From Phyllosticta citribraziliensis (Eukaryota), in contig NW_027117349.1 in assembly GCF_038025025.1 (NCBI RefSeq), forward strand, positions 1,364,001 to 1,428,000: 64,000 bases of DNA. Direction: 5' to 3'. Under the pieces are notes generated by a model that had not been told where the DNA came from, searched no databases, and saw only the letters and a list, made by a program, of their open reading frames with translations. Below, one piece after another: positions 4,181 to 54,527 of the stretch (position 1 is its first letter; each line of letters begins with the position of its first letter). Made by a program: the position numbers and the translations under genes.

Positions 4181-5374
4181 AAAGGTACGTGGTCTGGAAA
4201 GCCAAATCTTGACCCAAAACTGATAAAAAAGGCCTTCTACTGAAATACAATCTCGAACCACTGGCAGAGAATACGTTTTGGTGGATCACTGATGGAAATG
4301 GCTACAAGGTCTGGGTCAGGGTAGACACGGCGGTTATGCCTCAAATTCATTGCCTTCAATTTTGTATGATAATTCAAATGTGATCCAATGTCATGTGGAC
4401 AACGAAAATACTGCCTCTGGGCGCCTCTTTGATTGTCAATATCTTGCATTACATCTGAAGCGTGATTTCCTCTTGACATTTTCTCTGTCCAAAAATATTG
4501 ACCTCAGGATCAACCGATGCTTTGCGATGGGCTTGCATTAGAACATTAAAGTACGGCAAGGGGTCGGAAGCATCTTCAAAGGGGGAGACACAAAAAATGG
4601 GCATTGGGGACTTTCAAGAGAATTCAGTATCAGCAACCAGGTTGAGTGTCAAAATTTGAGCTCTGAAGATACCAATTTAACACATTTCCGTGTTAATGCG
4701 CCGACAAAACCGAGACACCATCGCCGTATCCACTCGGGGCCGCGATCTTGAATGCTTCTCGCTCTTCGAGCTCGAAATGAGTGCCGCAAAGCCATCCGGA
4801 TGAGACGAATCTCTTTCTTCTTTTGAGGACGTGTGAGAGACGGCGAAGCACAACCACGCCCTTTGGGCTTGGAGCCGCCGCGAATATTTGACTCGCAGCT
4901 TTTTAACACTTTGGGGTTTCCGCTGGTTTACCGGACCGGTTCATGCCATCGCCATCGCTTACGGTGCAAACCACAGGAGCAGGCGCAGGCGCAAACGGAC
5001 TGTCACGAATCGAGCGTGGGTGTATAAATATTGGCGGCCCCTTCCCAACGTCAACTTTTCAACCACCACCTCCACTCACTCACCCTCTATCTTCGACTCT
5101 GAGACAACGAACATCGAGGTAAGCTTACAAGATACCCATCTTCTTTGAATTCATTTCTTTGGTGCCTAACACATCGTTGGCCAGATTCTTGACAGACTCC
5201 CACGCGCTCAAACTTCAAACGCACCTCCGCACAATCGCCGTCCGACATATCTCGGGCCATTCCCAGTCAACCAAACACTTCAAGCACAATACATAAGGTA
5301 CTCCTTCATTGACATGGGAATGTGTGTCTTGTGCTTTGAAAGCTCCAGTACTGACTTCAAAATCTCTCCAGACA

Positions 5375-5710
5375 ATGTCCGCAAACGCTTCCGCCAACCC
5401 GAACCCCAGCATGGACTCCGCCTTGGCCAAGATCGCCAAGCTGGAGCTGCAGATCTCGGAGTTGCAGTCGTCTCTCAACTCGCGTATCAATACTCTGGAT
5501 GCGGAGCTCAAGCGTCTTCGTCTTCTTGATGCAGGCCTGGAGAAGCTGGGCAGCCAGGCTGACGCCATGCTCTGCAACGAAGCTTTGGTGGCCGATATGA
5601 TGGCCAGCATCACCGGCGGAGGTACCAGGCTTGAAGCCTTCACCAAAGAGGCTGAGGAGATGGTGGAGGACCTCACGAAGAAGCTTGGGGACAGCAGAGG
5701 CTCTGAGTAG
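5375..5710 (+). CDS. Small coiled-coil family protein, copy 4 (111 aa)
   Basis: Aligns to copy 1. TATA at 5022; two putative 5'UTR introns (5119-5184 and 5298-5371). Confidence 0.75.
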   Translation: MSANASANPNPSMDSALAKIAKLELQISELQSSLNSRINTLDAELKRLRLLDAGLEKLGSQADAMLCNEALVADMMASITGGGTRLEAFTKEAEEMVEDLTKKLGDSRGSE

Positions 5711-5987
5711 CCTGTCTGCGGGGCTCAGGATGCGGGGGAGTATGGAGCTTCGTGGGAAATACGGCTTGATGATTCCACTGCAATGGAATAGCTTTTACTA
5801 GTTCATGATCAAGAAGATACTTGCAATTTCCTTCAACAACAACGGACCCGTGTGACTCTACCATTTTCAAGCCCGTTCGATTGAATTGAGCCTCATACTT
5901 CAAAAGTCTGCCGTCTCCTTGCAATATTCTGCGCCTCGGTCATGCATTGTGCTGACACTGCATTCACAGACAAAATCCACAACCATA

Positions 5988-6310
5988 ATGGCCAATCAGT
6001 CTACCTCCAAGCCAAGTAAGGCGGTAGCCGTCCTGGCCAAAACCGCCGACATGGAAGTCAAGACCGAGGAGGTCCAGAGATTCGTTGAGTGGGAAACTAT
6101 CAGGCTTCCGTCCAACATCAAACACCTTCAGACCCGTGCAGAGGACTTTCAAAATCTCAGAAGCAGTTACTTCGGGGTGAGGAACTTGTTCAGAGTCTGA
6201 TGAGGGAAATAGGGGCATTACGTAGCTTGACCAGATCATAAAAGGCGACGATGAATTGATCAGCATTGTCTCGCTCGAGCTGGACAACGAGCTCTACAAT
6301 GGCTTCTTTG
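5988..6310 (+). pseudogene. Coiled-coil family copy 5, frameshifted
   Basis: The N-terminus (VLAKTADMEVKTEEVQR...IKHLQ) aligns with the family. Similarity continues in other frames (LRGEELVQSLMRE; IT*LDQIIKGDDELISIVSLELDNELYN vs SKLDGFTEKAEDMVVDVSEEMETASYN). Confidence 0.6.
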
Positions 6311-6635
6311 CGTAGAATAACCTTCCGGAAATATAAAAACGGGGATAGCAGTGAATGCGGGATTGGTCCTGGAAGGAGTTGACGCAGTGGAACAGAATAG
6401 TTCAGAATACGAGACCGCTTCCACCAGAAAGTAATGGCGGGGCAATTTTTCGTGCTTCAAGGCCGTAAGCCAGATATTAACACCACGGTGGTATTAACAC
6501 CGCGGCAACGCACTGAAGAGCGGGCGGGCTGTGAGAAACCGCCGGCTCTCCCCTCTGACCTTGACTCTTCAACCTCCAACCCTCCGACCTACAACCGCCA
6601 ACCTCCGCCCAAAAATCTTGAATTTTCTCAGAACA

Positions 6636-6943
6636 ATGCCCTCTTATTCCAAGGTCTGATACCAGTTTCGCGTGATCTGAATGGATGCTGATAATGCTCT
6701 CAGAAAACCTGCATTGCCACGCCTTCTCAGAGCGACATGTTCATCATGGTCGACCAACTGAAGAGCGTAGACAAGCTCGCCTCTGAGCTGAAGCTGTTCA
6801 ACCCCATGAAGGCGAGCGTTTCTGAGCTGCGTCGTCGCATCAAACACCTTCGGTTCATGACCGCGAAGATGAACGCCGTGAACGACGACTTCATGAGAAA
6901 AATGGACTATCGCGGCCCCTTGCGCATCAAGCCCAAGCTGTGA
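6636..6943 (+). CDS. Short basic protein, subfamily B (spliced: 6636-6653 + 6704-6943)
   Basis: MPSYSK^KTCIATPSQSDMFIM... stays in frame across a GT..GCTGAT..CAG intron. Paralog at 49631-49846(-): KLASELKL/KLVSELKL and IKPKL*/IKAKL*. Confidence 0.6.
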
Positions 6944-7499
6944 AGCTGGAATCTTGATCTACCAAGACGGCCTCTTCTTTGTAAGTATCCAGATCAATCT
7001 CGACAACGGCAGATACTGACCATAGAGATAGAAGTCAAGACAGCCACTGGCACCGTTGGAAAATCATGGGGGAGGATATATACGGCGTCACAATGGAATC
7101 AATTGGCAGAAGACATTGGCAGTGGGAATAGCAAACAAGGAATGAATCTAATTTGCCCCCAACACCGGACGCGTCGTGTCGAAGGCCCTTTTCATACCCA
7201 TCTTGAAAATTCGATGCCCCGGGATATTGACGACGGGGGACAGCAGTACAGGCTGGATTGGTGGTGGATCGTGCCTTGGCTTGTTGAAAACGCCGCGAAT
7301 CATCATCATCGTCTCCTGTTTGGGCGTGAGAAACTGAGTCGGGCGCAATTTTGAGTTTGACGGAACGCAGGCGGAACAAAGAAGTGGACTTCGGCAACCT
7401 GGTTGAAAGCAGGTGTGACGTTTTTCTGGCATGCTGCAGACATGTTGTCCGCGGCGCTTGCCATGGAAAGAAAAGTATGACCAGCGCTGGACAGAGAGG

Positions 7500-10400
7500 G
7501 AGATTGTATGCCCGTCTTTCAGCGTCGAATGAATCCGATCACATGTCGGCGGACTCACAAGCGTCATTTGGCATCTGCCAGTTCTAAATCACAAGATGTC
7601 CGTGCCTGGGTGATGAGTATAAAACCTCGTGTATCTGCGGAAGTCTGCAAGCTGTCCCGCAAGACTCCCAAGATGCTTCCGTACAAGACCCAAAACAAAA
7701 AGAATCTGACTTGGCTTCGGCTTCTGCTTTGCTTGATTTTCTCGCCTCCTTCCAATTTTCTGGTGCATCCTTCGGGTACGAGGCGCTGTTGAGCATTGTC
7801 ATCCAGTGATGGAGCGCGTCTTGACGAGTTCATAGCGCTGCGATGAATCGCCATCGTGTGTCATTTTACGGCAAATAGAGAGAGATTGCCGCAAAGACTT
7901 GATTCGAGCGCAAAAGGCCGGGGCAAAGAAGATAGCTGTGTTTATGAGTATTTCCTCGACAAGAGGGAGTCGCTTGATGACTTTGTCTGTGCCTCTGTCA
8001 GTGCCTGACGCGGGATGTCTGTCATGGAATAGGGATGAGGAACTGGGCAGTAGATGAGGGTTTTTATACCTGTCTTTCAGCTGCCAGATTCGCAACGAGC
8101 TCGCAGGGCTCTGTCACGCGCGCCGATGATTGCGGCACCGCGCGGGTTTTCTCTTGAGGTATTAAAGCGAGCACCTGTCTGCGATTACAGCCAACCTTCA
8201 AGACTGTGAGGGGCGATGAGGAGGATTGGGGATCCATATCAAGGTTTCGCACTGGGGGCCGCAACTTCGAATTTCTGGATTCCTACTTGGAGTTGGTTCG
8301 AAAGGTCCTTTCGTAGTGGCTTTTTTTAAGTACTGGAGCCCTCGTGTCCATTGTAGCATGATGAAGCGCAACACCACCACCACTCTTCTCGTTTAACCTC
8401 GCAAAGACGAGGGCAAGACACACAAGATGAAGTAAAGAGCCTGCGAGAGAAACAAACAGAATAAAGTGGGTGCTTGACGCTGTTGGCGAATGCCACGAAG
8501 TGGATTTCGCACACCCCTTCTGTGACTTTTCTAAACAGAGGAGTCGCTGCGGAGGCAAAGATTTTGGAGCGGAAGTGGCGATGGTTTTATACGATGGCTC
8601 GAGGCATCTATTAGCCGACCAGTCACAATCGAAGTCACGAGAGCCGCGTAGGGTGTTCCATGTGTCTGCGTCGAAGACTCTGGGAACAACAAGTGTTGCG
8701 AGAAAGTGACGGATATCAACGCCACCGCTTGATGCTGTCACTCGATGATTTCAGCGTTGCTTGAGGCTTTGTTGCTGGGTCCGGCCGCAAGACGAAAGAG
8801 ACAAAGCAAACTTGGCATAGCTTGGTCGACGAGTGACGCCAAAAAGTAAGAAACGAAAGGATGCTGCGACGATTTGTCTGTGATCAATGCTTGCTCTGTT
8901 GCAGGAACTGCGGACAGTAAAGAGTTGGGCTTTTATACCTGTCTCTCAGCTGCCTGCAAAACTGGCGGATCACGAGACGCGCTCCAGTAGTCTGCAGCTC
9001 GGAATTCCAAAATGATCACCGGTCCTCCGGTCGCAGGTATAAAAGGAGCGCAACTCCTGTCGCCAACTGCTCACTGCGCGCAAAATCCGTGAACACAAGG
9101 GAAGTAAACCATGATTGACGCGCTGCTCCTTGTTTGTTCTTTTCTTTTGAGAGCTTGTCGATTGAGAAACGCTTAGGATGTGACTTGAATCGGCGCAAAA
9201 TCATTGCTTGGTGATGATGAAGAGGATTGTGATGGTGTAGTGGTGCTGCTCCATCATCATTGACAGCTTTTGTTCAGCTGGTAATCCGCGTGGAAAGATT
9301 AGCGACAGAACCCGCGACAAGCGGAACAAATAGTGCTTTAAGTCACTTACGTTGGCACGAAGCAGTGACAAATCTTCGGAGGTGTTGCTCATGGCCAGTG
9401 ACTTCGCTGGAGCAGGAACCGCAGGCGAAGAAGAACTGGGCTTTATATCTCTTGCCTGTCAGCTGTCAGCCAGCTCGCCAAAAGTTACAAGCGAGCTCCG
9501 GATCTCGCGCGACTCGATGGCAGCGCTGCTGCTTCTCTCGCAGGTATAAAAGAAGCTCTTCCGCTTGTCCGCACCAGCTCGCTGTGGGCGATTCTCCCTG
9601 GAAACCACCAAACCAGCGCAAGTTTGTAAAGCCCACTGTCGTGAGGGACATGAAGACCACAATCATCCTGCACTTTCCGTTCTTTCTTTCTTCCGCGAGA
9701 CTGGAGACGGAGCAATTCTCGAGACGCCGAAGCCGACAGTGACGCTGTTGCTGGATGACAGCCATGTTTCTTCTCGCTGCGCAATATCATGCCATTAAGC
9801 TGCGCGCCGTCATGGCGCATCTTGCTTCCCCTTGCAATGAAGGACGCAAAGGAGCCGAGAAGGCAGAAGCCGCAAGAAAAGCAGGCCCAGTCCACTTCTT
9901 CGTCAACTCCATGCGCAAGCCAGTTCGTTTGTCGTAATCAACGTCTTTTAAGGCTTCTGCGGCGATACCTGCGTTGAAGATAAAGATCAGTGAGACGCTC
10001 GAAGCAGGAGAGGTTTTATACTCACCTTTCAGCTGCCAGGCAGCCGGCAATCACAAGCCGTGCTCCGATCGCGGACTCCTAAACTGTGTTGCTTGTGCCT
10101 CAGCCGTGGCTATAAAAGGAACTCATCTGGGGCGGCTCTCTTGAAAGTGTGAGCGGGTCTTCCAGCTACTTTGCTGGAGTTGAACAAACCAAAAGAACTC
10201 AAACTGCTTCCTGTGGTTTCGCTGCATTTTACTGTTCGTTATTTGTTCTCCTCGGCGACAGCGACGTTGTCGATGGGGTAAGGGGCTGGGGAATCGGGAG
10301 GCGAGTCGGGCGCCGGTGGTGTCATTGAGTGTCGATGATGTCGCCGCTGTTGTAAAGCATCAAGGTGCGTTCCCGCTGTGCGGCATAATCGTCAGTCGCC

Positions 10401-10760
10401 GACGTTTGGTCTTCTCACCACTCGCCCTCAGGGGTGGCGAAGAGACGGCGGCAAATCTGCCGCAGGACGGGCAGACAAAAGTAACTGAAGAGGCATCATA
10501 CATGTCCCAGGGGGCGAGTGATAGAATGGAAGACTGGTCTCCATGTGAACATCGTCGACGAGTGCTGCGCTGAAGGAAAAGCACCCCAGAGACAGAAGAG
10601 AGGGAGGAGTTTTATACCTTTCTTTCAGCTGCCAAACCACCGCAGAATCACGAGCCAAGCTCCAATCGCGCATTGGCGCATCGGTCAAGCGCGGCTTTCC
10701 TCTGCTGCTGATTCTTTCTCGGCGTGTATAAAAGCACGCCTTCTTGTCGCTCTTCCAGGC
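7500..10760. repeat. Diverged tandem array of back-to-back TATA cassettes (island A, 6 full units plus 1 half unit)
   Basis: Consensus TTTTATAC-N-YTTTCAGCTGCC-N-TCACRAG-N-GTATAAAA. Left/right TATA positions: 7504/7617, 8062/8159, 8585/none, 8931/9037, 9441/9544, 10014/10110, 10610/10726. Confidence 0.8.
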
Positions 10761-11233
10761 TCAGCGGCAACACTGTCGGCGTGCGCAAACAGGATCAACA
10801 TCGCTCCTCGGGCCCACTGTGTTTCTTGCCCTCGCTTCATCTCTCTCTCAGTCTCGACTTTTGTCCTGGCGCTGGCGGTTGGATGCGGCAGCGCTGTATC
10901 TAGAGTGTGGAGTGAATTGATCTGGGGAGATGCCCCCGATCATTACTCCTCAAGAACGCTACGAGGCGCCATTCTTAAACAAAGTAGCCAGATGTCTCCT
11001 TAATGTGCTGAACAGTCTGCAGAAATGGTCCTTGGAAGCGGCGACGCATCGAAATCAATCTGGCCAATTCATCAATCAGTCCTGCGCAAAAGCGCCTCCA
11101 CACTTATTTAGTAAAGCGCGCAACGGATCAAGCAATCAAGTCAGCTCTTCCCCATGCAGCTCCTCTCACTTCTCTCTCTCCTCACCTCAGGCTCTATTCA
11201 TAAGTTTCCTTCCCCATTCCTTCTTCAACAACA

Positions 11234-11333
11234 TCCGTTATGGTCTAGTGGCTAGGATTTGTCGCTCTCAGCATCTGCTTCTCAAGCACTGCAAAGCGCC
11301 GACAAGGCCGGGGTTCAATTCCCCGTGACGGAA
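11234..11333 (+). tRNA. tRNA-Glu(CTC) with a 28-nt intron (11271-11298)
   Basis: Acceptor stem TCCGTTA/TGACGGA; D arm GTCTAGTGGCTAGGAT; anticodon stem TGTCG/CGACA with CTC at 11267-11269; T arm CGGGG-TTCAATT-CCCCG; TTTT just downstream. Confidence 0.95.
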
Positions 11334-11545
11334 TACTCTTTTGCCTTTGCGTAGGAGTGTTGTGGGGCGCGTGGTGTTGAGGTGAATCCGTCGGTTGGCA
11401 AATTTTTGGTGGGTGGATAGGGCCGACGATGCGGGCCGATGAGCGCCCGGTGGACGCACGGGCGGTTAGGCACGATCAAGCGAGGACTGCGATGGGGAAA
11501 TTGGAGCTGGTGGAGACCTAGAGGGTGCGGATTTCTTCTTGTTTT

Positions 11546-11586
11546 TGTTGTTGTTGGTGGTGGTGGTGGTGGTGGTGGTGGATGAT
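11546..11586. repeat. (TTG)n(TGG)n microsatellite
   Basis: Directly visible in the sequence. Confidence 0.85.
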
Positions 11587-11959
11587 GCGTGTTTGGACCG
11601 CGCGGCGCGACACCACGGCGACGCGCCCAAGGGCAGTCTCTTCACTCCGCTGCCGCAGTAGGTGTCGAAAGAAATATACCTCCTGGTAGTATGTATGCAT
11701 CTAGGGAGCATTAATTGACTTCTACGCTTATGCTTTGGAAGCATTCATTTACTACTGCATTACCTGCGCTTAAGGAGCATCCACGCCTGCTATAGTTGCG
11801 CTTAGGAAGTAATAGTTTACTGTCGCAGCCAAAGTTCAGGGGTTGCATTTCTTCTGACACCCACTGTACTGCGTTCTTCCTGCGCCAAGCGCCCCCCGCG
11901 ACATGATGCAGTCCGAATTACAGACAACCGCAGAGAAAAAGAGAAGAAAAAAAGATATC

Positions 11960-13966
11960 TCAGTCCCACAGCACATTCACCCACTTCTCCCACTTCTTGC
12001 GCGGCGGCTCGGGCGCTTCGGGCGCACGCTCCACCGCTTCCAGCGCCTCGCGCAGCGGGATGTCGGAGAGCGCGACGATCTTGGTGCGCTTGAAGAACTT
12101 CCACGCAAGAAATGCGACCAGGACGAGGGGGATGTCGCTGTGGCGGGTGGGTCAGAATGCGCGTCGAGGTTGCGGGAATTGGAGAGAGGGGGACTCGACT
12201 TACAGGTACGACGACACGAAGCCGCTGGACGACCAGTTGCCGTTGGTGAAGACGGAGAAGCCGGCGGTGAAGAGGATGATGACGCAGAAGAAGAGGGCGA
12301 CGGGGGTGGAGTAGACTGTTTTGCATCGTGTCAGTTAGGATCCGCTCTGGGATCGGCTCGATAGATAGGAATGAAGGTTGGGAACTGTCGTACTCGTCCA
12401 ATTGTTGTGCCACGGCAGACGCTCCAGCGGCAGCATCTGCTTCTTCATGGCCATCATCAACCGCTGGTGGTTGACCAGAATGGTGATCCAGCTGATCAAG
12501 ACGCCGGCCGCGACGAGGTCGACGAACCAGTAAAACACGGTGAGCGCGCCGCTCGACAGACTCATGAAGGAGAGGAACATAAAGGCCGTCTGGATTAGCA
12601 CGCACACGTACGGGATGCCCCAGGAGGTGGTCCGCAGCAAGATGCGCGGCGCTTGGCCTTTGAGCGCCAGGCTGTAGAGCACGCGGGTTCCGGCGAGCAG
12701 CGCTTGGTTCGACGATGACCACGCCGACGTGATCAAGATGGCGTTGACAACCGAGGGGATGGCCTTGATGCCCGCCGCGCTCGCTGCAATGACAAAGGGG
12801 CTCTGGGCTGCGGTACCGGACTGGTCGTCGAGCCGCTTGTCGTCGCTCGCAACCAGCATGCCGACAATCAGCACAGCCAAGATGTAGAACAACGAGACGC
12901 GTGCAAAGACGCGTTTGCAGGCGTTGGGAATGGCTCTCCGCGGGTTGCGGGTCTCAGCCGCCGCCATGGCGACGCTCTCTACGCCGGCAAACGAGAAAAC
13001 GGCATTCGTCATCACGGCCCAGTAGCCCAGGAACTGACCCCAGCGGCCCGTGGCGATGTACTCGACGAAGGGACCGGGCGTCTTCCAGTACCGGAAGCCG
13101 ATGCGCGGGACGCCGGGAACGCCGCCCAGGTTGATGACGAGCCCCAGGATGATGAGGAAGATAATGAGTAGGATCTTGAGGATGGCGAAGAAGAACTCGA
13201 CTTCGCCATAGATGCGGATCAAGCTGATGCCGACGATAAAAGTGACGACAATGGTCAGGACGATCCAGACAGACGCGTTGATATCGGTCCAATACTCAAA
13301 CAGGACGCATATTGCTGAGATTTCCGAAGGGACTGACAGCCAATTGCCGTAGACAATGTTGTATCTAACTGGTCAACTTTGCTGTAGACATGCTCGTTGG
13401 ACCGATCCTTACCCAATGGCAAAGCCCAGCGCCGGATCGACCAGGAATTCCGCATGGCGAACGAAGGAACCAGTGACGGGGAGAAGCGCCGTGACTTCTC
13501 CCAGCGCAAACTGCACGGCGCAAACAATCAAGCCGACAGTTGCGTAGCCAAGCAGAGCGCCGAGGGGACCACCCGTCTGGATCGAGCTTCCAAGACCCAG
13601 AAACAAGCCGGTACCCTGCAAGAATTAGAAAATGCTCAAAACTTCCAGGGCAGAACGTAAAATAGGTAGAGGTAAATTTGGTAGTTGGTGGACGTTTTCC
13701 ATCCATCTTTCCTGCCCACCCCCATTTTTGTGCATAGTAGAGCAAAACAAACTTACAATCGCACCCGCCAGCGCAATCAAACTGATGTGCCTCTGATGCA
13801 GGCCCCTCGAAAGATCCCTCTCTTCATAGACAGTAACGAAATCGCCTCCATGGTCGTCCGTCACGACGCCATCCTCCGTGGCGCGCGGGGGTTGCTCGAG
13901 GTCGGGCGAGTCGTCCCGAGACACCTCCAGCCCGTACCCGTGTTTGTTGGCGGTGGTAGACGCCAT
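11960..13966 (-). CDS. Amino-acid permease (APC superfamily, yeast amino acid transporter type), 5 exons
   Basis: LSRGLHQRHISLIALAGAI^GTGLFLG, YGEVEFFFAILK, AVFSFAGVESVAMAAAETRNPRRAIP, SPFVIA; ends KWVNVLWD* at 11960. Confidence 0.93.
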
Positions 13967-14638
13967 GGCCGCTATCCCAAGAGACGAGGGCAGCGAGTGA
14001 AGAGCGGCGAAGAGCTCACAAGGCGATGCACGCTACGTGTGGTGTCTGCCTCATCGGTCCATGAGGTCGCGAGGGAAAAAGGGACTTCGTAATAATGCGG
14101 CGCGAAAGGACACCAGCAGCAGAAAAAATCGCGTGCTTGCCGGCCGACGTAAGCCAATCGAGGCCCGTCGCTCAAAGCAGACTGGCGAGGGTTGCGATAA
14201 CAGGACGAGTCAGGCCATGTGCGTCGGGCGGCAAGGGTCGTGTGGCCTTGGACTTTCGGTGGGCTTGGGACATGAACGATGGGGACTGCTCAGCTCGTGG
14301 GAGCAGCAGCGATTGCAAGTGTCGTGATTCACCTCGGGCTTTGGTGCTGGTGGAGGAAGACGTTGGCGATGTTGGCAATGTCGGGTCGATGGCGCCAGAG
14401 CGGCAAATGAGGCGCCCGATAAGCGATGGATTCGGCCCACAGCCGACGCCAAAACAGGCGGGTCTACCCGAATCACCAGCTCCACCATTCACGCAAGGCT
14501 GAAACACAAACAGTCGATTTCGTTCTCGTTTCTACGCTGGAGCAGAGCCTGGAAAAACATCGAACAAACGAGCGTGGTCAAGAGACCTCCATCTGGCCTC
14601 GACAGCTCTGCCAGCAGTCACCCAACTCGTCATTGACC

Positions 14639-28592: not shown

Positions 28593-31500
28593 ATGGTGCT
28601 GGGTCTCTTCGGCGGCAAAAAACAAGAAGAGACTCCATGTGTGGACATTGAACGCCAGGATCCTCCGTCAGAAGGCCTGTTCATTCTCCATGATGACGGT
28701 CCTGACGCTGTAGCGGAGTAATATCATCGAGAAAAGACGCTAAGACCCACCGCTAATGCGCCGTTCTAGTGTCTGTTTTGTCCATGGCCTCGGAGGACAT
28801 CCCGAAGAAACATGGTCGAAAGGAGACTGTTGCTGGCCACAACAATTGCTCCCAAAAACCTTTTCGAGACGCAACATCAAGATACGCATCCTCAGCTTTG
28901 GATACGATGCTCGTCCCGCACAATGGGAAGCCGGTTCAAACAATAGCCGTGTCTGGGGCATTGCCAGAAAACTCATGCATCAGCTGGGCGACTTTGCCGA
29001 AGATTTGGGGCCCGAGAGATGCAATCGACCGATTGTTTTCGTGGGCCACAGCTTGGGTGGGCTCGTGATCAAAAGCGTTGTCTGTCAGTCGCTGCAGCGC
29101 AGTTCCGAAACATCAGAGCGAAAGGTTTTGGCTCGCACAGCTGGCATAGTAAGTCCCGCTTAATCTATTGCGGGGATGGTGGAATCACTCGTTGTCTAAC
29201 AAGATCATGCTTGCAGGTCTTCCTTGCTACACCTCATCACGGAAGCGACTTTGCGAAGTGGGCGAACTATTTTCAAGCCATATTCGTCATTGCACAGAGA
29301 GCGCCGAACAAGAATTTGATCGAAGTCTTAACACCAGACGCAGCTCAACTTAAAGATCTCGGTGACGGTTTCAATTGCGTCGCCAAAGCCATTCGAAAAT
29401 ACTGCTGCTACGAGACTAAGAGCACAGTCAAGGGAGGTATAGACCTTGGACAGGTAAGCAAGAGCTTTCCATGTATGGCGTGTAGCGCGAGATGACCTGC
29501 TGTCGACACTCGAAGCTCCAGAACTGTTCGAACGAGATCGTTATATCGCCGATCCCCAGTCCAGCACCTTCCAATGGCTCATGGACGGTTCTCATCCTCC
29601 ATTCGTCAACTTTCTCCGTGGAGACGACACGTTATTCTGGATCGTAGGAAAAGCAGGGTCGGGAAAGTCAACACTAATGAAATCCCTTCTCAAACACCCG
29701 GCTCTTCGCACGCACCTTGATGTCTGGTCGCCAGGCGAACCGTACGCGATTGCGTCTTTCTTCTTCCATCAGCAAGGACACCACCTTCAAAACTCCCTCG
29801 AAGGTCTTTTGAAGTCCCTTCTCTCTCAGCTTCTCCGGCAAGTGCCTGAATTTCTCCAAATTCTGCAACGTCACAACCACCGGTCAGGATCTTGGACCGT
29901 GAAAGAGCTCCGGGATGCCTTTAGAGAGTGCATGGCCGAAATCCCACCAATGACCCGAATTTTCCTCTGTATTGATGCCCTGGACGAGTACATCTCGACT
30001 GAGCAAAGGCCTGCATCTTCGAGTTCTGTCGGATTTCAAAAGAACAACCAGCTAGAGATAGCACTATTCCTTGGCAATCTTGCACGAGAGGGCCAACGGG
30101 TGAAGATTTGTGTCTCAGGCAGGCCGTATGAGGAGTTTCGAGCCGAATTTGATTCCGCCCATTGTCTGAGGCTACACGACTTCACTGGAACCGACATACT
30201 GACTTACATTGATGAAGGATTTCACGGGATTCAGGATTCCCACTGGCGGTGGACAGCTTTCGCTGATGAATACTCAGAGGTCCGTCAAACATTCTTGAAT
30301 CCTTCCTCGGTTCGGGAACTTGTTCGAGAAGCTATTTTCCAAAGATCCTCAGGCATCTTCTTGTGGGTTAAATTAGTTGTCGCCCGTCTTCGAGACCAAG
30401 TCTGGCGTGGATGCCCTCTATCACAATTGATAGATAGCCTCGACAAGCAGAACGATCTGGAAGGCCTCATTGAGTCAATGTGGGGAAATGTGCCCAAGGA
30501 GTCTCGAGAACAAGGTCTTGTCTACATTTACATGCTCCAAAAATCGCTTGGACGCCGCACTTCGAGCGAAGAATACCTGAATCTAGCCTCTTTTCCGACC
30601 ATGCAACAACGATGGACCACCCGACAGTTCTTCTCCGGAAACTTTGGCGAGCTCGACGACGAAAAACTTTTCGACTTGGAGCCTTTGGCCTTGTGCAATC
30701 TACAGGTTTCTTGCGGGCAGTTACTCGGATGGGGATATGGCCGTGTTGAAATCACCCACCAGAGTGTCATCAACTACTTCTCCAGCGACCAATTTGCTCA
30801 ATTGAACGCATTAGACTCGATTGACCTCGACGACGTGAAAGCGAAGGCCGATAGGTGCGCTGCTGCTAGCTTCATTCTGCAGCTGTGGAATCCGAAGCAC
30901 CTCAGGTCGCGTCCAAGGGATGTTGACCCACAGTATTGGGTCTTTGAAACGATTCGCATGGCCACGAGATGCATCGAAGACGTCGTAAAAAGGGGAGAGA
31001 TCACCAAGCTGGACGAACAACTCCTCGAAGCGGCATCGTCAAGACAGCTTTTGTCATGGGCATTTGGACTCGAATATCGCACCTTTTGCAAACTGTACGG
31101 AAGCACGCCCAGAGGAGAAATCTTCCGAAACTTTTGCCTCCGAGAGTTCTGGAACTCCGAAACACTCAAGGACCGAATGCCAAAATCGGAGACAAAAGAA
31201 CGCTCACTTGTCGAGATGTTGTTTGAGCTCGTATTGGTCGATCCAAAGGGACACACTTATGTCGAAGACATGTGGAGCGACTGTGACTTGAGCTCGGACA
31301 TGAAAACGAAGTTCCGAGGCCTCACCCCGTGGGAATACTGCCTGGCGCTCTTGGTCTTCTTCGAAATGATGCACTTGACACCGTTCGTCGCCAACGAGGA
31401 GATAAGACCATGGGGATCCCCGCGATGCCCAAGAGCTTCGGTCATGATACTGCAGGATCTTGTGGTTCAGCTCATCCAAAAAGGGGCAGATCCCTGCGCA

Positions 31501-32007
31501 TCGATTGAAGTCCATCGCATGACTTCAAGGAAGTGGAAAGGCGCACAGCCCGTCTGGGCTCTCTCATGCTACAAAAATCCCTACTTGTCACACTCCAGAG
31601 TTCTAAAGGGGGACATTGACCAAGTCTTTCGGAAAGGGCGAAAGATGTCGGCCCTCAGAATTGTCGGACGGATTTTCGGGGAGAAAAGTGAAGCATGGAA
31701 ATTGCTTCTGGAAAAAGGAGCACGACTTGAATCAGATGAATTCGAAAACGAGTTGATATGGCGACTGAATTCTCGTCCTTCCACAGCTTTCAACAGCACG
31801 AATGTGGCTCTCAGCGACGGGTGCGTCCCGCGGAGACCCTTCATTTTAGAAGACCTGATGGAAGAACGTCAAGAACTGGTGGACCAGTGGGCTCCTGGAC
31901 AGCCCGACCCAAGCCCCATGAGTCCGTTATCATCCATCATTTCAGAAAATTCGGACAGTTCCAGATGTGATGATAGTTTTACTGAAGATTCCAACATGGA
32001 GGACTAA
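28593..32007 (+). CDS. Fungal NLR-like gene: SesB-like alpha/beta hydrolase + NACHT, with a disrupted junction near 29454-29490
   Basis: VCFVHGLGG, FVGHSLGG, VFLATPHHGS; Walker A GKAGSGKST; Walker B LCIDALDE; SGIFLWVKLV; introns 28718-28769 and 29149-29216. Confidence 0.82.
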
Positions 32008-48906: not shown

Positions 48907-49630
48907 TCTGGTTGGAGAGGGAGCGGTTGCCAGAGGAGCTTGCTGGCGTTGGTTGTGAGTGGTTGAGGGTGGAGGGTGATGGGCGGGGGGTGGCGTACCA
49001 AGATGAGACGTCGTGGCCGTGCAGTCGCGCGGAACTCTCTGGGCAAAGAAAATGTTTGATGAAGTCGAGCGGAGTATAAATTGTCGAGCGAAGTCCTGAA
49101 GTGCTGGTGTCTGCCAGCCTATGTCCATGTGGACATTCTGCCGCAACCTGCTACCTGCTCAGATATGACGCCGTAAACTTCCCGCAAACAGAATCTGGAA
49201 AGAACTTTCGCGCCAAAGAAGCAGACGGTCTTCCGAAGATGCGCAATAGCTACTTTAGCACATGCTTCGGGTAAAAACAACTTCTGTGAATCTCACCATT
49301 GGCATATGAGCCACAAAGAAAATGGAATTGTCTGGATACGTATGGAGTGTTCTTCCTGCACGAAGTGTTTGATCTTGTAAGTGAAGGAAATTCATTGTTT
49401 GGTGTCCCACTTCCAACGTCCTCTACCAGCATTGTTTTCCTGTGATCCCCAGATCTAGCTTTATGATGATCCAAGGACGCCGGCGGCTGCCGTGATATCT
49501 GTCTCCAGCGGTCAGTGTCTGCCAGCGTTGAGATCCATGACCTGGATGCTTACAAACATCATGTTGTCTAGGTGAAACCCGTACCCCAGCCAAAGCAACT
49601 GAGAAGGCCGTCTGCCTCATGGCTCCAACT

Positions 49631-49846
49631 TCACAGCTTGGCCTTGATGTGCGAGGGGCGGCGGCGCGATGGGCCGTGATTGACCATGAATGCGAGCATG
49701 CCGAGTGCACAGGCCTTTCCGAGCAAATCCCTGTTGCGAAGGAGTACATCGACAACCTTCTCCTCTGGCTTGCCGTGAAGCTTCAGCTCAGAGACCAGCT
49801 TCTCGGTGCCTTCGGCGAGCATGAGTTTTGCATTCTGAGGAAGCAT
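49631..49846 (-). CDS. Short basic protein, subfamily B paralog
   Basis: Protein similarity and flanking DNA similarity (about 49470-50130) to 6450-7070. Confidence 0.55.
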   Translation of the reverse strand: MLPQNAKLMLAEGTEKLVSELKLHGKPEEKVVDVLLRNRDLLGKACALGMLAFMVNHGPSRRRPSHIKAKL

Positions 49847-50489
49847 GGTGGTGCGTGTTTTCTGAGAGTATTGTCAGCATTTATTCAGATCACGCAAATG
49901 TGGGGTCAGAACTTGGAAGAAGAGGCTGTTTTTAAAATCTTGTCTTTTAAGTGGCTGCAACGTTTTGTGGGCGGAGGTTGGAGGTCGAGGGTTGAGGGGT
50001 GCAGGTTGGAGGTTGGATGTTGAAGGGTCGAAAGCGTGGTTGACAGCCGGCCGGTGCTTATGGACATGCCCCGTCTCGGTTCACTTCGCCGCCGCAGTGT
50101 TAATATTGAGCGCAGGGCCTTGGCAAATTTTGTCTTTGTGAATCAGGCAGGAGAAAGCTTTGTCACCTTGATTTCAATCCTGCATCCGCTGCTGTATCAA
50201 GGTTGCCGCTACCCCGTGACGTGGTCATCGTTACTGACTCCCATCATCACAGCTCCACGACACTCAGCAGTACAACAAGATGAAGACATTCGTCATCGCT
50301 CTGCGAGCTCTACCACTACTGCGCGAGACAAGTGACAAAGCTCGCGGGCAAAGGAGCCGCCGCACACTGAGACAAGTGAACATCTCGGCTTCCCAGCGGG
50401 AGACCAAGTAGGTCGTAATTTTCGGCGTCCTCAGGGCCCCAGGTTTGAAATTCCGTGTTATCGAACCACCAATTCGAAAATATCGAGGG

Positions 50490-52450
50490 CTTTTTGTACC
50501 AGGACTCGCGGTCCAAGCGCTGCATGAGCTGCGGCGCGACACATGGCAGCAGCACATGCTTACCAAACACTGGCAGCTGGCTTGTGATCCACGGCTGCCA
50601 TCTGCAGCAGGAAAAGGGGGTATAAAACCCTCGCCCTTTTCGGTCTCCTCTCTTGTTTTCAGGACACTCATCAAGCACGGATCCAAGTGGAAGACGGCAC
50701 ACCGGATTCGGACTTTCTCGCGTCTGCAAGGCTCGCCTAGATGGTGGAGCACTCTTTTCCGCTTTTGCTGCGTCCGCTAAACAGCTTTGCTGAGTCTGGA
50801 TTGCTTCCACAGCTCAGAAAAAAGAAATTTGACCAGAAGATGGCCCGTAGCATTTTTGCTCCACGATAAAAGCATAACATCATGCTTTCTCAGTGAAGCT
50901 CATCACCTACGGTTTTGCAGCTCTTATATCTTAACGGAACCTTAAGACAGCTCAACTCACACTGAGCAAAAGAAAGAAAAGAAGGCAGAAGGACACAGTA
51001 TGCAGAGCAAACCCGAGTGTCATTGAGTTGAGAGTCTCCGAAGCTCAAGTCAGCGCATCCGCGTTGTTGAGTGGTAAGAGGCGGAGGCTTGCGGGGTCTT
51101 TTATACCACACCCCAGCGGCCCAGGCGCTGCACGAGACGTGCGTGCTTGCTCTCTCACATGCATCAATTACTATCGGCTCGTGATCCACGAGTCGCTCTC
51201 GCTCGCCGCGGAAACGAGGGTATAAAAGTCTCCAGCTTCGCCGCCTCTTTCTCTTCTACAGAGCAGTCATCGCCTACGTGCCTAGTTATTCCAGTGCCGA
51301 AATTGAAGACGACTGACTGCCTGGTCCCGTTTGCTCTGCGCCAACTTCCATTACCACTCGTCTCCTCCCTTGCGGCGAAAAAAAGGAGCAGAGGCAAATG
51401 ACTGGGCTAACGACGCAGGATGGAGCTGGATTCCTCCACCATCACCCGATGGCGTTCACTGGCATCGCAAGATGCGCTCGCAGCAGCGCCAGATAGTAGA
51501 AGGTTAGCTTAGACGCGACGAGGAAACCGCAGTGCAAAGGTATCCCGGAAGGTCCAGAAGGAAACCAGGTCCGAGTCATGAACATCTTTGTCGTTCTTTG
51601 ACAGTTGCAGCTCAAGACTGCGAACACAGCTTGTTGAACAACGGAACATGGAGGATTACAAAGGCTTTTATACCACAGCTCAGCGGCAGAGGCGCTCACA
51701 TGCCAATCGGACCCTGGCTTGTGATCTGCCTTTTTTTTCCTGTGGGAAAAGGGGTATAAAAACGTCAAGCTTCTCAGCCTGCAGCTCTTTTCCAGATCAC
51801 TCGACACCCGTGCATCTACGCAGAAGCGGAAATCCGTGACAATGACGATGACTTTTCCTGGACGCAAGAAACTCTCGAGTTGGTCACGTTTTCCTTTCTC
51901 TTGATTCGGCAGCTCTTCTGTAGCACCCTCTCCCTCAGTGCGCTGAGAAAAGGAGGCGCCATGTCCATAGAACCGTCATGGATAAGTGTTGAAGTGCTTC
52001 ATCATTGACCTACGACGCTCGCCAGCATGGAATGCTGCGTTTAGATTGTGTGCTGCTGCGGTCGTGTCGAACTAAACTCCAACTCCAACCCCAAAGGCGC
52101 AAAAGAGAAGAAGAGTTCAATGCCGCGGAGCCGGGAGAAAGAGACAGTACGATGTGATCCACATGCTGTAGAAAACAAGTTCTCTCTCCGCACCTGAAGC
52201 TCTGAACAGGCGTCCAGCTTTCAGTTGTCGAGCCTCTGCCCGCTCAACCTTCCGACTTTTATACTCCGACTCAGTGACTGAGTGGCCTAAGCGCCGCACA
52301 CGACACATGCCACATGCCCTCATACGCTACTGGCTTGTGGTCTGGATAGCACACGATAGTTGACAGTTGACATGTGAGCGAGCCAGCTGGCGACAGCGCA
52401 TATGACAGTCTGCCATGTGAAGGGAGGGAGGGAAGAAGGGTATAAAAGAC
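50490..52450. repeat. Array of back-to-back TATA cassettes (island B, 4 units, inverted relative to island A)
   Basis: TATA pairs at 50492/50620, 51099/51220, 51666/51754 and 52257/52440, each with an internal GGCTYGTGRT (reverse complement of ATCACRAGCC). Confidence 0.8.
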
Positions 52451-53316
52451 TGCTCAGGCCGCACTTTTGATGGCATCGACAGCCGTTGACGCCATGGCAG
52501 GCGCGTACCGACACTGGGTTACTTGGAACAAGTTGTTGAAGAGCAGATCACTTTCTTTGCGCGGCCGGCTGCTCGCGTTCAATTCAAGAACCCAACGTCC
52601 CAGAGATTGTGTCTCGCAGCTTTTCGCGATGGCGTCTATCCGCGTCAGCACACAGCATAGAAAGTCAGCATCGTCGAGTCATGCCGCTGAAGGTTCTCCA
52701 TTCCCTCTCACATCCACCTCTTCTCGAGCCTTCCCTTCTCCTATCTTCTTTTCTTTTCTCTTCTCTTTTCTTCCCTTCGCTTCCCTCCTCTTCCATTCCC
52801 TTCCCTTCCTGCACCAAAGACGAAAACCAGATGTCTACATACAAGCCTAGTCAAGCCTAGTCAAATCACTCAGCCAAAAACCAAGCACAGGCAGATCAGA
52901 CGAACGCTCCCACCACGGACGCATGTCGGCGACTGCCTAATCCAGCTAGCGCCGCCAAGCGCGCGTACAAAAGGACGCTCCATCTGCGGCGACGACTTCT
53001 CGACAAATCCACACACATTCGCTCACGCTTGTAGTGCAACATCCCTAACAAGATGGACACTGGTCGTGAGGACTGGTTTCACCGCAACATCGAATTGTTC
53101 TGCGCGGCGGACGGGGGTCTCGCGATGCTTTTTGCTTTGTGGGGGTCTCTGTCGACGTGAAAGGGTTGTGGCGGACATCAGCATCACTGCCATGTAATGG
53201 AGTCGAGGTAAGAGGTTATGTACATGGTATGCGAAGCGGACCAGTGGCCCTTCTTTCTAATGCAAGAAACCGTTTGATGCAAAAGCGCGCCATGCCATGC
53301 AAAAATGCAACGATGT

Positions 53317-54527
53317 CTAGTTCCCCTTCTTGTTCTTCTCCTCCTTGGTCGGCGGCGTGTACCCGCCGCTCCACAAGACGCTCAGCCGCGGGACGAAGCG
53401 GCCGACCTGCTCCTGATACACGGGATACTCGTCGTACTTGCCGGCAGTCAGCAGCTCGGTGAGCCACGTGCTTCCCTGGAACAGCATCAGGTAGAACAGA
53501 GCGCCCAGCCCCGACCAGTTGTACACCGTCTGCGTGTGGAAGCAGCCCCATTGGTATAGGAGGACCCAGATGGACTGCTCGGCGACGAAGTTGGGGTGCC
53601 GGCTGATGGACCACAGGCCGTGCGTGTTAAAGCCGCGGTCGAAGTCTGCGCGCGTGTACGGGCTGTTTGGAGGCATGACGCCGGTGCGGAGGTATGTGTG
53701 TTTGGCGTTTTGGTAGTCTGAGTGAGTCGTTAGATTGGGTGTGGATGGCGGCGCGGAGGACTTACTCCACTGCTGCTGGTCGGCGAACCATTCGAGCACG
53801 ACGAGTCCGATGAGGACGCGCGAAAAGATCACATCAGGCAGGGTCATGCCTTGGCCGGCGAGGGAGGAGCTGAGGAGGAGGACGTAGGCAGGGGTAGCGA
53901 CAAGGAAGAGCAAGACCTGGGACGTTAGCGTAATCGACAGATATCGAGAGCGAACTCACGCTTTGAATGGTCGAGATAAAAGTGACATTGAAGAGGAAAA
54001 AGATCACTGGGTGGACATAGTTCTTGATTACTTCCCAACGATAGTCTTCGGAGCCAATGCTGTATCCGCCTCGACGCCAGTAATTAAAGGTCAAACGAAT
54101 CTGCAGTCATGAGCCAGGGCCGGGAGAAAAGACGAGGGATCCTCACGCTCCAGAGACAGCTAAACGCAAAGACATTGTCAATCAGCTGCGTCGGTAGACC
54201 CGATAGATGGGCCCATAGTGTGAAATTGGCGACATGGATTGTGGGGAGCAAGCTCCACAGACGATCGACCTGGGAGTAGTTTCTGTTGATCTCGGAGACG
54301 ATCAAGAAGATTGGCGCAAGGGCGAGGGAAAAGGCAAAGCCCGACACCAGAGGGCTGGTGGAGAGGTAAATGGACTTCAGCGCGTCGAGGTCGGTGATGT
54401 TGTCCAGGACTTGGAATGGCAGGGCCTTCAACTGGGGGAGCAGGGGCTCGACCGACTTGAAAAAGTCGGCGCAGTCGGCGAGCGAATTGACGGCGGGCAG
54501 GGCCATGTTGGCCGCGACGAGAGGCAT
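53317..54527 (-). CDS. DUF1295 family membrane protein (steroid 5-alpha-reductase-like)
   Basis: EINRNYSQVDRLWS, TFNYWRRGGY..GSEDYRW, ADQQQW, GLWSISRHPNF, LFQGSTWLTE. Start at 54527 or 54506. Confidence 0.9.

Follow-up and report, generated by a model that had tools for sequence, protein, structure and literature searches.

What does selection preserve where short cassettes with outward-facing TATA motifs recur at regular intervals and the DNA between them is unrelated from one interval to the next? The question is raised by a 64,000-nucleotide stretch of Phyllosticta citribraziliensis DNA (NCBI RefSeq assembly GCF_038025025.1, contig NW_027117349.1, positions 1,364,001 to 1,428,000 of the forward strand), hereafter the window, in whose coordinates all positions are given. 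Two arrays of such cassettes occupy gene-free stretches of the window, 40 kb apart and inverted relative to each other. Array 1 (7504-10733) comprises six full cassettes and one half cassette. Reading of the sequence and a repeat finder both returned the cassette starts at 7504, 8062, 8931, 9441, 10014, and 10610 and the half unit at 8585 that had been listed in a first-pass annotation of this DNA. Array 2 (50490-52447), with four cassettes in the opposite orientation, had been missed by that annotation. The answer favored here, at a probability of about 0.5 for the explanation as a whole, is that the arrays are tandem, co-regulated bidirectional RNA polymerase II (Pol II) core promoters that drive short, convergent noncoding transcripts. 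That the cassettes are promoters is, taken by itself, likely.

The cassettes are 104-124 bp long in array 1 and 96-191 bp long in array 2, and the start-to-start spacings in array 1 are 558, 523 + 346, 510, 573, and 596 bp. The two sides of a cassette are denoted R and L, the R side being the one that reads on the plus strand in array 2 and on the minus strand in array 1. The cassettes are as follows.

7504-7624, minus strand: cassette c1, array 1; degenerate R-side TATA GCATACAA (minus strand), L-side GTATAAAA at 7617; nhmmer E 1.1e-25, as a training sequence.
8062-8166, minus strand: cassette c2, array 1; R-side TATA at 8062-8069, degenerate L-side TATA GTATTAAA at 8159; E 0.021 with the array-2-only profile.
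8585-8650, minus strand: half cassette c3, array 1; R-side TATA at 8585-8592 with a TCACGAG-like motif; L-side TATA and CAGCTGCC both absent; missed by the cassette profile.
8931-9044, minus strand: cassette c4, array 1; TATAs intact on both sides; E 8.6e-06 with the array-2-only profile.
9441-9551, minus strand: cassette c5, array 1; degenerate R-side TATA GATATAAA (minus strand), L-side GTATAAAA at 9544.
10014-10117, minus strand: cassette c6, array 1; L-side TATA is CTATAAAA, R-side TATA overlapped by GTGAGT; E 1.5e-05 with the array-2-only profile.
10610-10733, minus strand: cassette c7, array 1; TATAs intact on both sides; E 6.6e-11 with the array-2-only profile.
50490-50627, plus strand: cassette d0, array 2; degenerate L-side TATA TTTTTGTAC, R-side GTATAAAA at 50620; E 1.4e-05 with the array-1-only profile.
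51099-51227, plus strand: cassette d1, array 2; E 2.3e-07 with the array-1-only profile.
51666-51761, plus strand: cassette d2, array 2; E 2.4e-05 with the array-1-only profile.
52257-52447, plus strand: cassette d3, array 2; large internal insertion; E 9.8 with the array-1-only profile.

The octamer that marks the cassette edges, GTATAAAA, occurs 8 times in the 64 kb, as does its complement TTTTATAC; all 16 copies lie inside the two arrays, compared with 0.88 expected from base composition. The longer pattern TTTATAC-N4-YTYTCAGCTGYC, with up to 2 mismatches allowed, has 4 matches in the window and none in 100 dinucleotide-preserving shuffles. The recurrence of the motifs described in the first-pass annotation is thus far above chance, but their uniformity was overstated. 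The exact octamer is present on both edges in 6 of the 10 full cassettes (the CTATAAAA edge of c6 being counted as intact), whereas in c1, c2, c5, and d0 it is exact on one edge and degenerate on the other. Read on the plus strand, the degenerate left TATAs are TTGTATGC at 7504 and TTTATAT at 9441, and the right TATAs of the cassettes at 8062 and 10014 are GTATTAAA and CTATAAAA, respectively. The motif TCAC[A/G]AG is missing from the cassette at 8062, and the cassette at 9441 carries TTACAAG. Among the three octamer variants, two (CTATAAAA and GATATAAA) keep the TATA and lose the leading GT, and one (GTATTAAA) shows the reverse. Because the TATA outlasts the GT in two of the three, a TATA box is favored over a splice donor as the selected feature. 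The motif columns stand clearly above the flanks, in line with the earlier claim that the motifs are better conserved than the DNA between cassettes; column identity within the cassettes is moderate, with a mean of 56-57%.

Between the TATAs (∼90-180 bp) lie further boxes, namely, CAGCTG or CAGCGG; ATCACRAG, in an orientation that varies across the arrays; and, in array 2, CACATGC. The array 2 cassettes on the plus strand align by eye with the array 1 cassettes in reverse complement, and profile searches recover the same relationship. An nhmmer profile built from array 2 only detected four of the six full array 1 cassettes, all on the minus strand (E 6.6e-11, 8.6e-06, 1.5e-05, and 0.021), with the fifth at E 1 and c1 missed. 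The profile built from array 1 only detected three of the four array 2 cassettes on the plus strand (E 2.3e-07, 1.4e-05, and 2.4e-05), with d3 at E 9.8. Weak opposite-strand matches within cassettes aside, the best match of these cross-array profiles outside the cassettes in the window had an E value of 0.25. Because each one-array profile finds the other array on the opposite strand, the cassette is a single oriented, homologous unit. A profile of all ten cassettes found no additional copy in the 64-kb window and did not recover the half unit. Two other possible roles of the cassette itself were examined. RNAalifold, run on nine of the ten cassettes (d3 being left out for its insertion), predicted 0 pairs in a consensus RNA structure. 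A coding exon inside the cassette was rejected, given that no frame is open in all cassettes and that the common motifs fall in differing frames.

The DNA beyond the TATAs retains positional features that resemble those of a promoter. When the array 2 sides are lined up on the octamer without gaps, the A of CAG falls at offset 41-42 on all four R sides and CAAC at offset 38-41 on all three L sides; on the array 1 R sides, lined up on the octamer, CA falls at offset 39-47. Alignment gives a common YYCA(G)NGCA ∼40 nt past the TATA, and each TATA has a start-like CA site ∼30-47 nt downstream. Over offsets 9-42, pyrimidines make up 0.73 of the sequence on the R sides (11 sides) and 0.57 on the L sides (10 sides). 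Farther out, at offsets 100-175 past all 19 TATAs, a pyrimidine patch on the sense strand reaches 62-64% C+T compared with a window mean of 50% (standard deviation [sd] 10.6%). A TTTGC core occurs at offsets 100-200 on 8 of 10 R sides and 4 of 9 L sides, over a background of 0.17 per 100 nt; this motif was chosen post hoc, and the commonest 5-mer in shuffles reaches 11 of 19 at the 95th percentile compared with the 14 observed. The TATA-to-TATA distance stays within 412-510 bp across eight complete spacers. In the xylP/axs5 promoter, for comparison, the mapped start is 34 bp downstream of the TATA, a pyrimidine-rich stretch separates the two, and mutating either the TATA or this stretch lowers activity (PMC9703631).

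The spacers themselves, 340-500 bp long and mutually unrelated, are the following (none has an assigned strand, except the skipped segment).

7625-8061: spacer s1; unique, noncoding, flanked by converging TATAs; probable RNA contig 7651-7950.
8167-8930: spacers s2a and s2b, on either side of half cassette c3; probable RNA contigs 8108-8312 and 8774-8863.
8864-8938, minus strand: 75-nt segment skipped in one X4 contig; GT..AG ends, with the GT belonging to the R-side GTATAAAA of c4.
9045-9440: spacer s3; RNA contig 8989-9139 enters from c4; intron-like GTAAGT...CTAAT...CAG at 9278-9350 (minus strand).
9552-10013: spacer s4; probable RNA contig 9606-9753.
10118-10609: spacer s5; no cover in either probable RNA run.
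50628-52256: three array 2 spacers (50628-51098, 51228-51665, and 51762-52256), with d1 and d2 between them.

A comparison of 12 spacer and flank segments with blastn at word size 7 gave a best match of only 23 nt (E 0.007), and no copies of the spacers were found elsewhere in the 64-kb window. Global alignments of half spacers (R-R, L-L, and R-L pairs) were no better than reversed-sequence controls at more than 60 nt from the TATA. The earlier statement that the DNA between cassettes shares only a pyrimidine-rich patch and no common reading frame therefore stands: apart from the patch, there is no alignable similarity, and the first-ATG frames past the 19 TATAs, 2-126 residues long with the ATG at offset 31-234, are mutually unlike and unconserved.

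The coding signal of the spacers was assessed from the GC content at third codon positions (GC3), which replaced a codon log-likelihood that separated coding from noncoding frames poorly (true genes 8.9, sd 7.7) and was dropped. In all 20 long array frames GC3 is 0.47-0.60, flat across codon positions, compared with 0.65-0.81 in seven of the eight domain-bearing genes of the window; the eighth, an NLR-like gene, has 0.55. The 20 longest stop-free spacer frames matched no Pfam family at E ≤ 0.01, the single listed match having an E value of 0.084. Two peptide classes were rejected. In two frames cysteine is the fourth residue from the end, as in a lipopeptide pheromone, and neither is a plausible precursor; for a metallothionein-like peptide, the maximum is 6 cysteines per 25 residues in any frame, none of these within a start-to-stop frame.

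Searches for a structured product were likewise negative. Rfam in gathering mode gave no match in the whole window, and in E-value mode over 5000-14000 and 49500-53500 it gave a flanking tRNA and chance-level hits only, with none in the arrays at E ≤ 0.1; the sole array match, a bacterial small RNA over cassette d2 at E 0.99, is at chance level. The folding energies of 19 predicted transcripts (offsets 40-340), compared with dinucleotide shuffles, had z scores of -1.96 to +1.67. A GATGA-type mid-spacer motif seen by eye was judged to be a chance occurrence, with no D box after it. The best box C/D-like candidate in the arrays, at 50814-50906 (minus strand), carries GTGATGA, CTGA and TGATGT internally, another CTGA at the terminus, and a terminal stem of 6 bp, two of them G-U pairs; it is probably due to chance, no other spacer having one and Rfam being silent.

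A separate observation concerns variation in spacer s1. A contig of the metagenome run X1, covering 7759-8107, has 19 differences from the window, 17 of them packed into 7799-7874 (76 nt), and at most 2 in the other 233 nt, which include the start of c2. The packed differences show no three-base periodicity, and the patch looks like a mosaic or hypervariable segment between near-identical strains, or like a paralogue.

Contigs from two runs, X3 and X4, bear on transcription. Their status as RNA is judged from spliced contigs and uneven depth, neither run being on record as RNA and the RNA label of both being a guess: X3 contigs skip four GT..AG introns in neighboring genes, and the depth of X4 is very uneven, at 88 over 11775-12025 and 0 over 12277-12778, where X3 exceeds 1400. 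In array 1, X3 contributes contigs 7651-7950 (300 nt, depth 10.9) and 9606-9753, and X4 contributes 7783-7932, 8108-8312, 8989-9139, and 10746-10919, as well as 8774-8863 joined to 8939-8999. The 300-nt contig starts 34 nt past the first base of the L-side octamer at 7617 (offset 35), and X3 has no cover over 7451-7650, which includes cassette c1. It ends ∼20-30 nt past an A-rich GCAAAG stretch, which might suggest a polyadenylated end. It also crosses two TTTT runs, and RNA polymerase III small-RNA genes that stop at the first T run were rejected for this reason. Minus-strand RNA is shown by the splice at 8864-8938 and plus-strand RNA is suggested by the start at 7651, the two being in different spacers.

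The joined X4 contig removes 8864-8938, which has GT..AG ends on the minus strand, with the GT of the R-side octamer of c4 as the donor; the junction comes from a single contig of depth 4 whose shorter side is 61 nt long, and its placement is ambiguous by 3 nt. This contig and 8989-9139 are each 151 nt long and overlap by 11 nt, as would the mates of a single minus-strand cDNA fragment running from 9139 to 8774. If they are read as one fragment, some R-direction RNA starts upstream of c4, probably at c5, reads across all of that cassette, and undergoes splicing at the following TATA. Canonical intron-like segments number only two in the arrays, both on the R-direction strand: 9278-9350 (minus; GTAAGT...CTAAT...CAG) and 9969-10025 (minus; GTGAGT...CTGAT...CAG), the latter overlapping the TATA of c6.

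Several of these observations weigh against the reading of the cassettes as convergent promoters. The use of the octamer GT as a donor means that the octamer can act other than as a TATA and that some transcripts are long rather than short. The L-side octamers are crossed unspliced by two contigs, 8989-9139 and 8108-8312. Contig 10746-10919 starts 13 nt past a TATA (offset 21), too near for a start from it, and another contig starts 55 nt past a TATA (offset 63). Given the sparse cover, the chance that a contig end would match a predicted start is roughly 10-15%; moreover, the contigs give neither strand, start, nor end, and their ends at such depth are weak evidence for RNA ends. Array 1 depth is 4-15, compared with 2080 for the neighboring permease gene, and the lack of cover at 9265-9515 and 9767-10519 is uninformative either way. 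The strong pyrimidine run is missing from the L sides. Finally, purifying selection is judged here from paralogues within one window only.

On balance, the proposal that the cassettes are bidirectional promoters, made from the layout in the first-pass annotation, gains from the consensus TATA on both edges, the CA at a near-fixed distance, the R side with 73% pyrimidine, and the RNA contigs in the spacers, one of which starts 34 nt past a TATA. The accompanying proposal of short convergent RNAs is retained in part: RNA contigs lie in the spacers, but one fragment runs across an entire cassette, with splicing at the GT of the TATA that comes next. The mechanism would then run as follows. The cassette would be a compact, oriented, bidirectional Pol II module, in which outward TATAs bracket common factor-binding motifs and a CA start site lies beyond each. 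Such modules would have multiplied in tandem into at least two arrays, now in opposite orientation, and selection would have held the TATAs, the start-site context, the factor-binding boxes, and the 412-510-bp TATA-to-TATA distance while the DNA between was replaced completely. Each spacer would be transcribed inward from both flanking cassettes into unstructured noncoding RNAs of ∼300 nt or longer. Since RNAs of at least ∼300 nt would issue from starts 330-430 nt apart, the convergent partners are predicted to meet and overlap, and some would continue through the next cassette. Because the transcribed DNA has been turned over and neither codes nor folds, what matters would be transcription from both ends into a short interval. 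Such paired transcription, which is more likely to be the functional output than any encoded product would be, may act via transcriptional interference, via double-stranded RNA (dsRNA) or small RNAs, or via local chromatin marking. By analogy with known loci, an output of dsRNA or small RNAs is plausible; that the useful output is the sense/antisense pairing, and not a product, is a tentative proposal with the odds somewhat against it.

Other explanations make different sense of the same features. The arrays could hold fast-evolving micro-genes, with each TATA driving a tiny mRNA for a 20-60-residue, often hydrophobic peptide too diverged to align. A common promoter with unique bodies is what a co-regulated gene family would be expected to show, 13 of the 19 first-ATG frames have 18-63 residues, and ∼8-10 of them cross the pyrimidine patch to give leucine-, phenylalanine-, and serine-rich stretches that resemble signal peptides or membrane helices. 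However, a pyrimidine patch reads as an open hydrophobic stretch whichever of the three frames is used, and chance would be expected to yield frames of this kind. The ATG offset ranges from 31 to 234 with no conservation of the frames, two of the 19 have just 2 residues and one has 6, the flat GC3 of all 20 long frames is unlike that of seven of the eight real genes, and there is no Pfam match, no prenylation-type C terminus in a plausible frame, and no cysteine-rich frame. A battery of micro-genes, as the first-pass annotation had suggested, thus finds no support in codon composition and is unlikely. The spliced fragment suggests another possibility, a single long multi-exon noncoding RNA per array, transcribed in the R direction (minus in array 1), in which GTATAAAA, the pyrimidine run, and CAG would form repeated short introns and the cassettes would be exon ends. 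The X4 contig that joins 8863 to 8939 at an octamer GT, on a fragment reaching back to 9139 upstream of c4, is what this arrangement requires; on the R sides, a pyrimidine run with CAG after it is also similar to a 3' splice site, and c6 has GTGAGT...CTGAT...CAG spanning its TATA. Yet the acceptor observed is at +75 and not at the conserved CAG at ∼+42, and in most cassettes 42-53 nt without a branch-point motif would make a poor intron, the arrays holding only two intron-like candidates. In addition, GTATAA is unlike the GTAAGT/GTACGA donors of three of the four confirmed neighboring introns and differs from the fourth too. The octamer is equally conserved on the L side, where no CAG follows it and where two contigs cross it unspliced, and two octamer variants retain the TATA and lose the GT. 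With the junction itself seen in one contig at depth 4 and placed only to within 3 nt, this explanation is very unlikely.

A decayed tandem repeat or mobile-element relic without present function, such as a small element with 10-bp inverted ends CTTTTATACC...GGTATAAAAG, would account for the 10-bp inverted repeat formed by the cassette ends, for the grouping of copies in two clusters, and for an internal identity that is only moderate (mean column identity 56-57%). Joint decay would not, however, leave the octamers identical while the spacers lost all similarity, nor would it preserve the unit length through total sequence turnover or, beyond the cassette, the positions of the CA site, of the pyrimidine run, and of the patch at 100-175. 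A MITE or solo LTR would combine terminal inverted repeats with a target-site duplication and dispersed near-identical copies; here no target-site duplication was seen at the cassette flanks and no dispersed copies were found elsewhere in the 64 kb. We therefore give little credence to a functionless relic; a lineage-specific repeat family is possible. The remaining candidate is a cluster of genes for small structured RNAs (box C/D or H/ACA small nucleolar RNAs [snoRNAs], or microRNA-like hairpin precursors), each transcribed independently under one promoter type; the half spacer (∼200 nt) has the right size for such a gene. In box C/D snoRNAs, the C and D boxes are joined by a terminal stem. 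Box H/ACA snoRNAs have two hairpins, an H box, and an ACA 3 nt from the 3' end, and in Neurospora crassa their genes are mostly intergenic (16 of 20), with independent transcription dominant (PMC2780460). Against such a cluster, Rfam gives no snoRNA match in the arrays at E up to 10, the two weak C/D hits (E 8 and 9.9) lying outside them and the flanking tRNA being the sole significant hit. A box C/D scan returned 2 array candidates, compared with ∼0.9 expected by length; an ACA at offsets 110-300 is missing from 5 of the 19 half-units; the predicted transcripts fold no more stably than shuffles; and RNAalifold predicts no pairs in the nine cassettes folded together. The probability of structured RNA genes is accordingly next to negligible.

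Convergent bidirectional promoters, the reading preferred here, have partial precedents. The closest in layout is the xylP/axs5 promoter of Penicillium chrysogenum, which, like the cassettes, places a TATA upstream of the start (mapped at ∼34 bp in xylP, predicted here) with a pyrimidine-rich stretch between, and which contains a short duplicated module, a 91-bp repeat, with factor-binding sites and is transcribed both ways (PMC9703631). In that source, it is a single promoter between two ordinary protein-coding genes, whereas the arrays consist of 10-11 homologous copies in two tandem series, with a consensus TATA on both edges and 340-500 bp of unrelated noncoding DNA between them.

For the predicted output, the nearest comparison is provided by Neurospora loci at which convergent transcription accompanies Dicer-independent small RNAs (disiRNAs) and dynamic methylation (PMC3764098). 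The disiRNA/convergent loci of N. crassa have the overlapping sense and antisense Pol II transcription proposed here, also in gene-rich DNA, and their proposed output is small RNA and dynamic chromatin or DNA marks, not a protein; they differ in being ordinary genes with antisense partners, from a few hundred bp to >10 kb, with no repeated promoter cassette described in the available part of that paper (PMC3764098). The likeness is drawn from sequence geometry, and transcript overlap in the arrays is a prediction. Genes for filamentous-fungal snoRNAs, single or clustered, are also short intergenic noncoding units with putative Pol II promoters (PMC2780460), from which the arrays differ in lacking C/D and H/ACA boxes as well as any fold signal or Rfam match. 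With respect to regulation, a conserved promoter element stands before many short, unrelated, clustered units also in the 21U-RNA (Piwi-interacting RNA [piRNA]) genes of Caenorhabditis elegans and in plant small nuclear RNA (snRNA) and snoRNA genes. Such genes are transcribed in one direction only and yield RNAs of defined classes, whereas the arrays have promoters in back-to-back pairs and converging units, for which there is no fitting RNA class.

Thus, there are precedents for bidirectional TATA promoters, for convergent-transcription loci, and for families of small genes with a shared promoter. Tandem homologous two-way TATA cassettes with unrelated, noncoding, transcribed spacers of fixed length are apparently new: we could not find them described, and a limited literature search for tandem bidirectional TATA cassette arrays in fungi found none. 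One cassette pattern searched in JGI metagenome contigs gave 14 single matches, none with a second TATA at the array spacing; the 26-nt blastn identity of one of them to the window is the searched motif itself. Two cassette patterns in viral contigs gave 1 single match and 0.

The DNA between the arrays contains ordinary genes, which code for a subtilase, a vacuolar protease, a fungal transcription factor, and an NLR-like NACHT protein, and a Pfam search of 32 long window frames for a large mobile element or Starship context shows ordinary genes and no recombinase. The frame of the NLR-like protein, with NPHP3_N and NACHT, spans 29458-32007 (plus strand), and its GC3 is only 0.55, compared with 0.65-0.81 in the other seven genes analyzed. 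Immediately to the right of array 1, positions 11234-11333 (plus strand) contain a tRNA gene that has a ∼30-nt intron; it was detected by Rfam in E-value mode (47.2 bits, E 8.2e-08) and missed by Rfam in gathering mode and by ARAGORN, which reported no tRNA in the window. The letters of its anticodon loop make it a putative Glu-CUC tRNA. An amino acid permease gene follows at 11718-13400 (minus strand; Pfam AA_permease, E 6.5e-69), with an X3 depth of ∼2080 and introns at 12138-12203 and 12316-12393 confirmed in RNA; an adapter-bearing X4 contig end at 11718 may be the 3' end of its mRNA. The stretch that separates the tRNA from the permease gene includes a perfect (TGG)9 microsatellite (11555-11581), at which X3 reads appear to be cut.

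What the arrays would mean for the fungus depends on whether the cassettes are active. A bolder version of convergent transcription would make the locus a eukaryotic "repeat-spacer" system, in which two-way promoter repeats transcribe unique, rapidly replaced spacers into dsRNA, as a guide-RNA factory for RNA silencing similar in logic to piRNA clusters, and in which the spacers might be captured from invaders or target genes. The absence of similarity between spacers, the kept unit length, and the difference-packed patch at 7799-7874 can be counted as fitting this idea, which we nevertheless regard as a long shot. Should the locus be a decaying repeat, it would be of little interest. If the cassettes are active, each would be a very compact (∼110 bp) bidirectional TATA promoter part for fungal engineering, and P. 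citribraziliensis would have a natural array in which selection acts on promoter motifs and their spacing and not on the transcribed sequence, so that the function would lie in convergent transcription itself, in its geometry, or in dsRNA, and not in a product.

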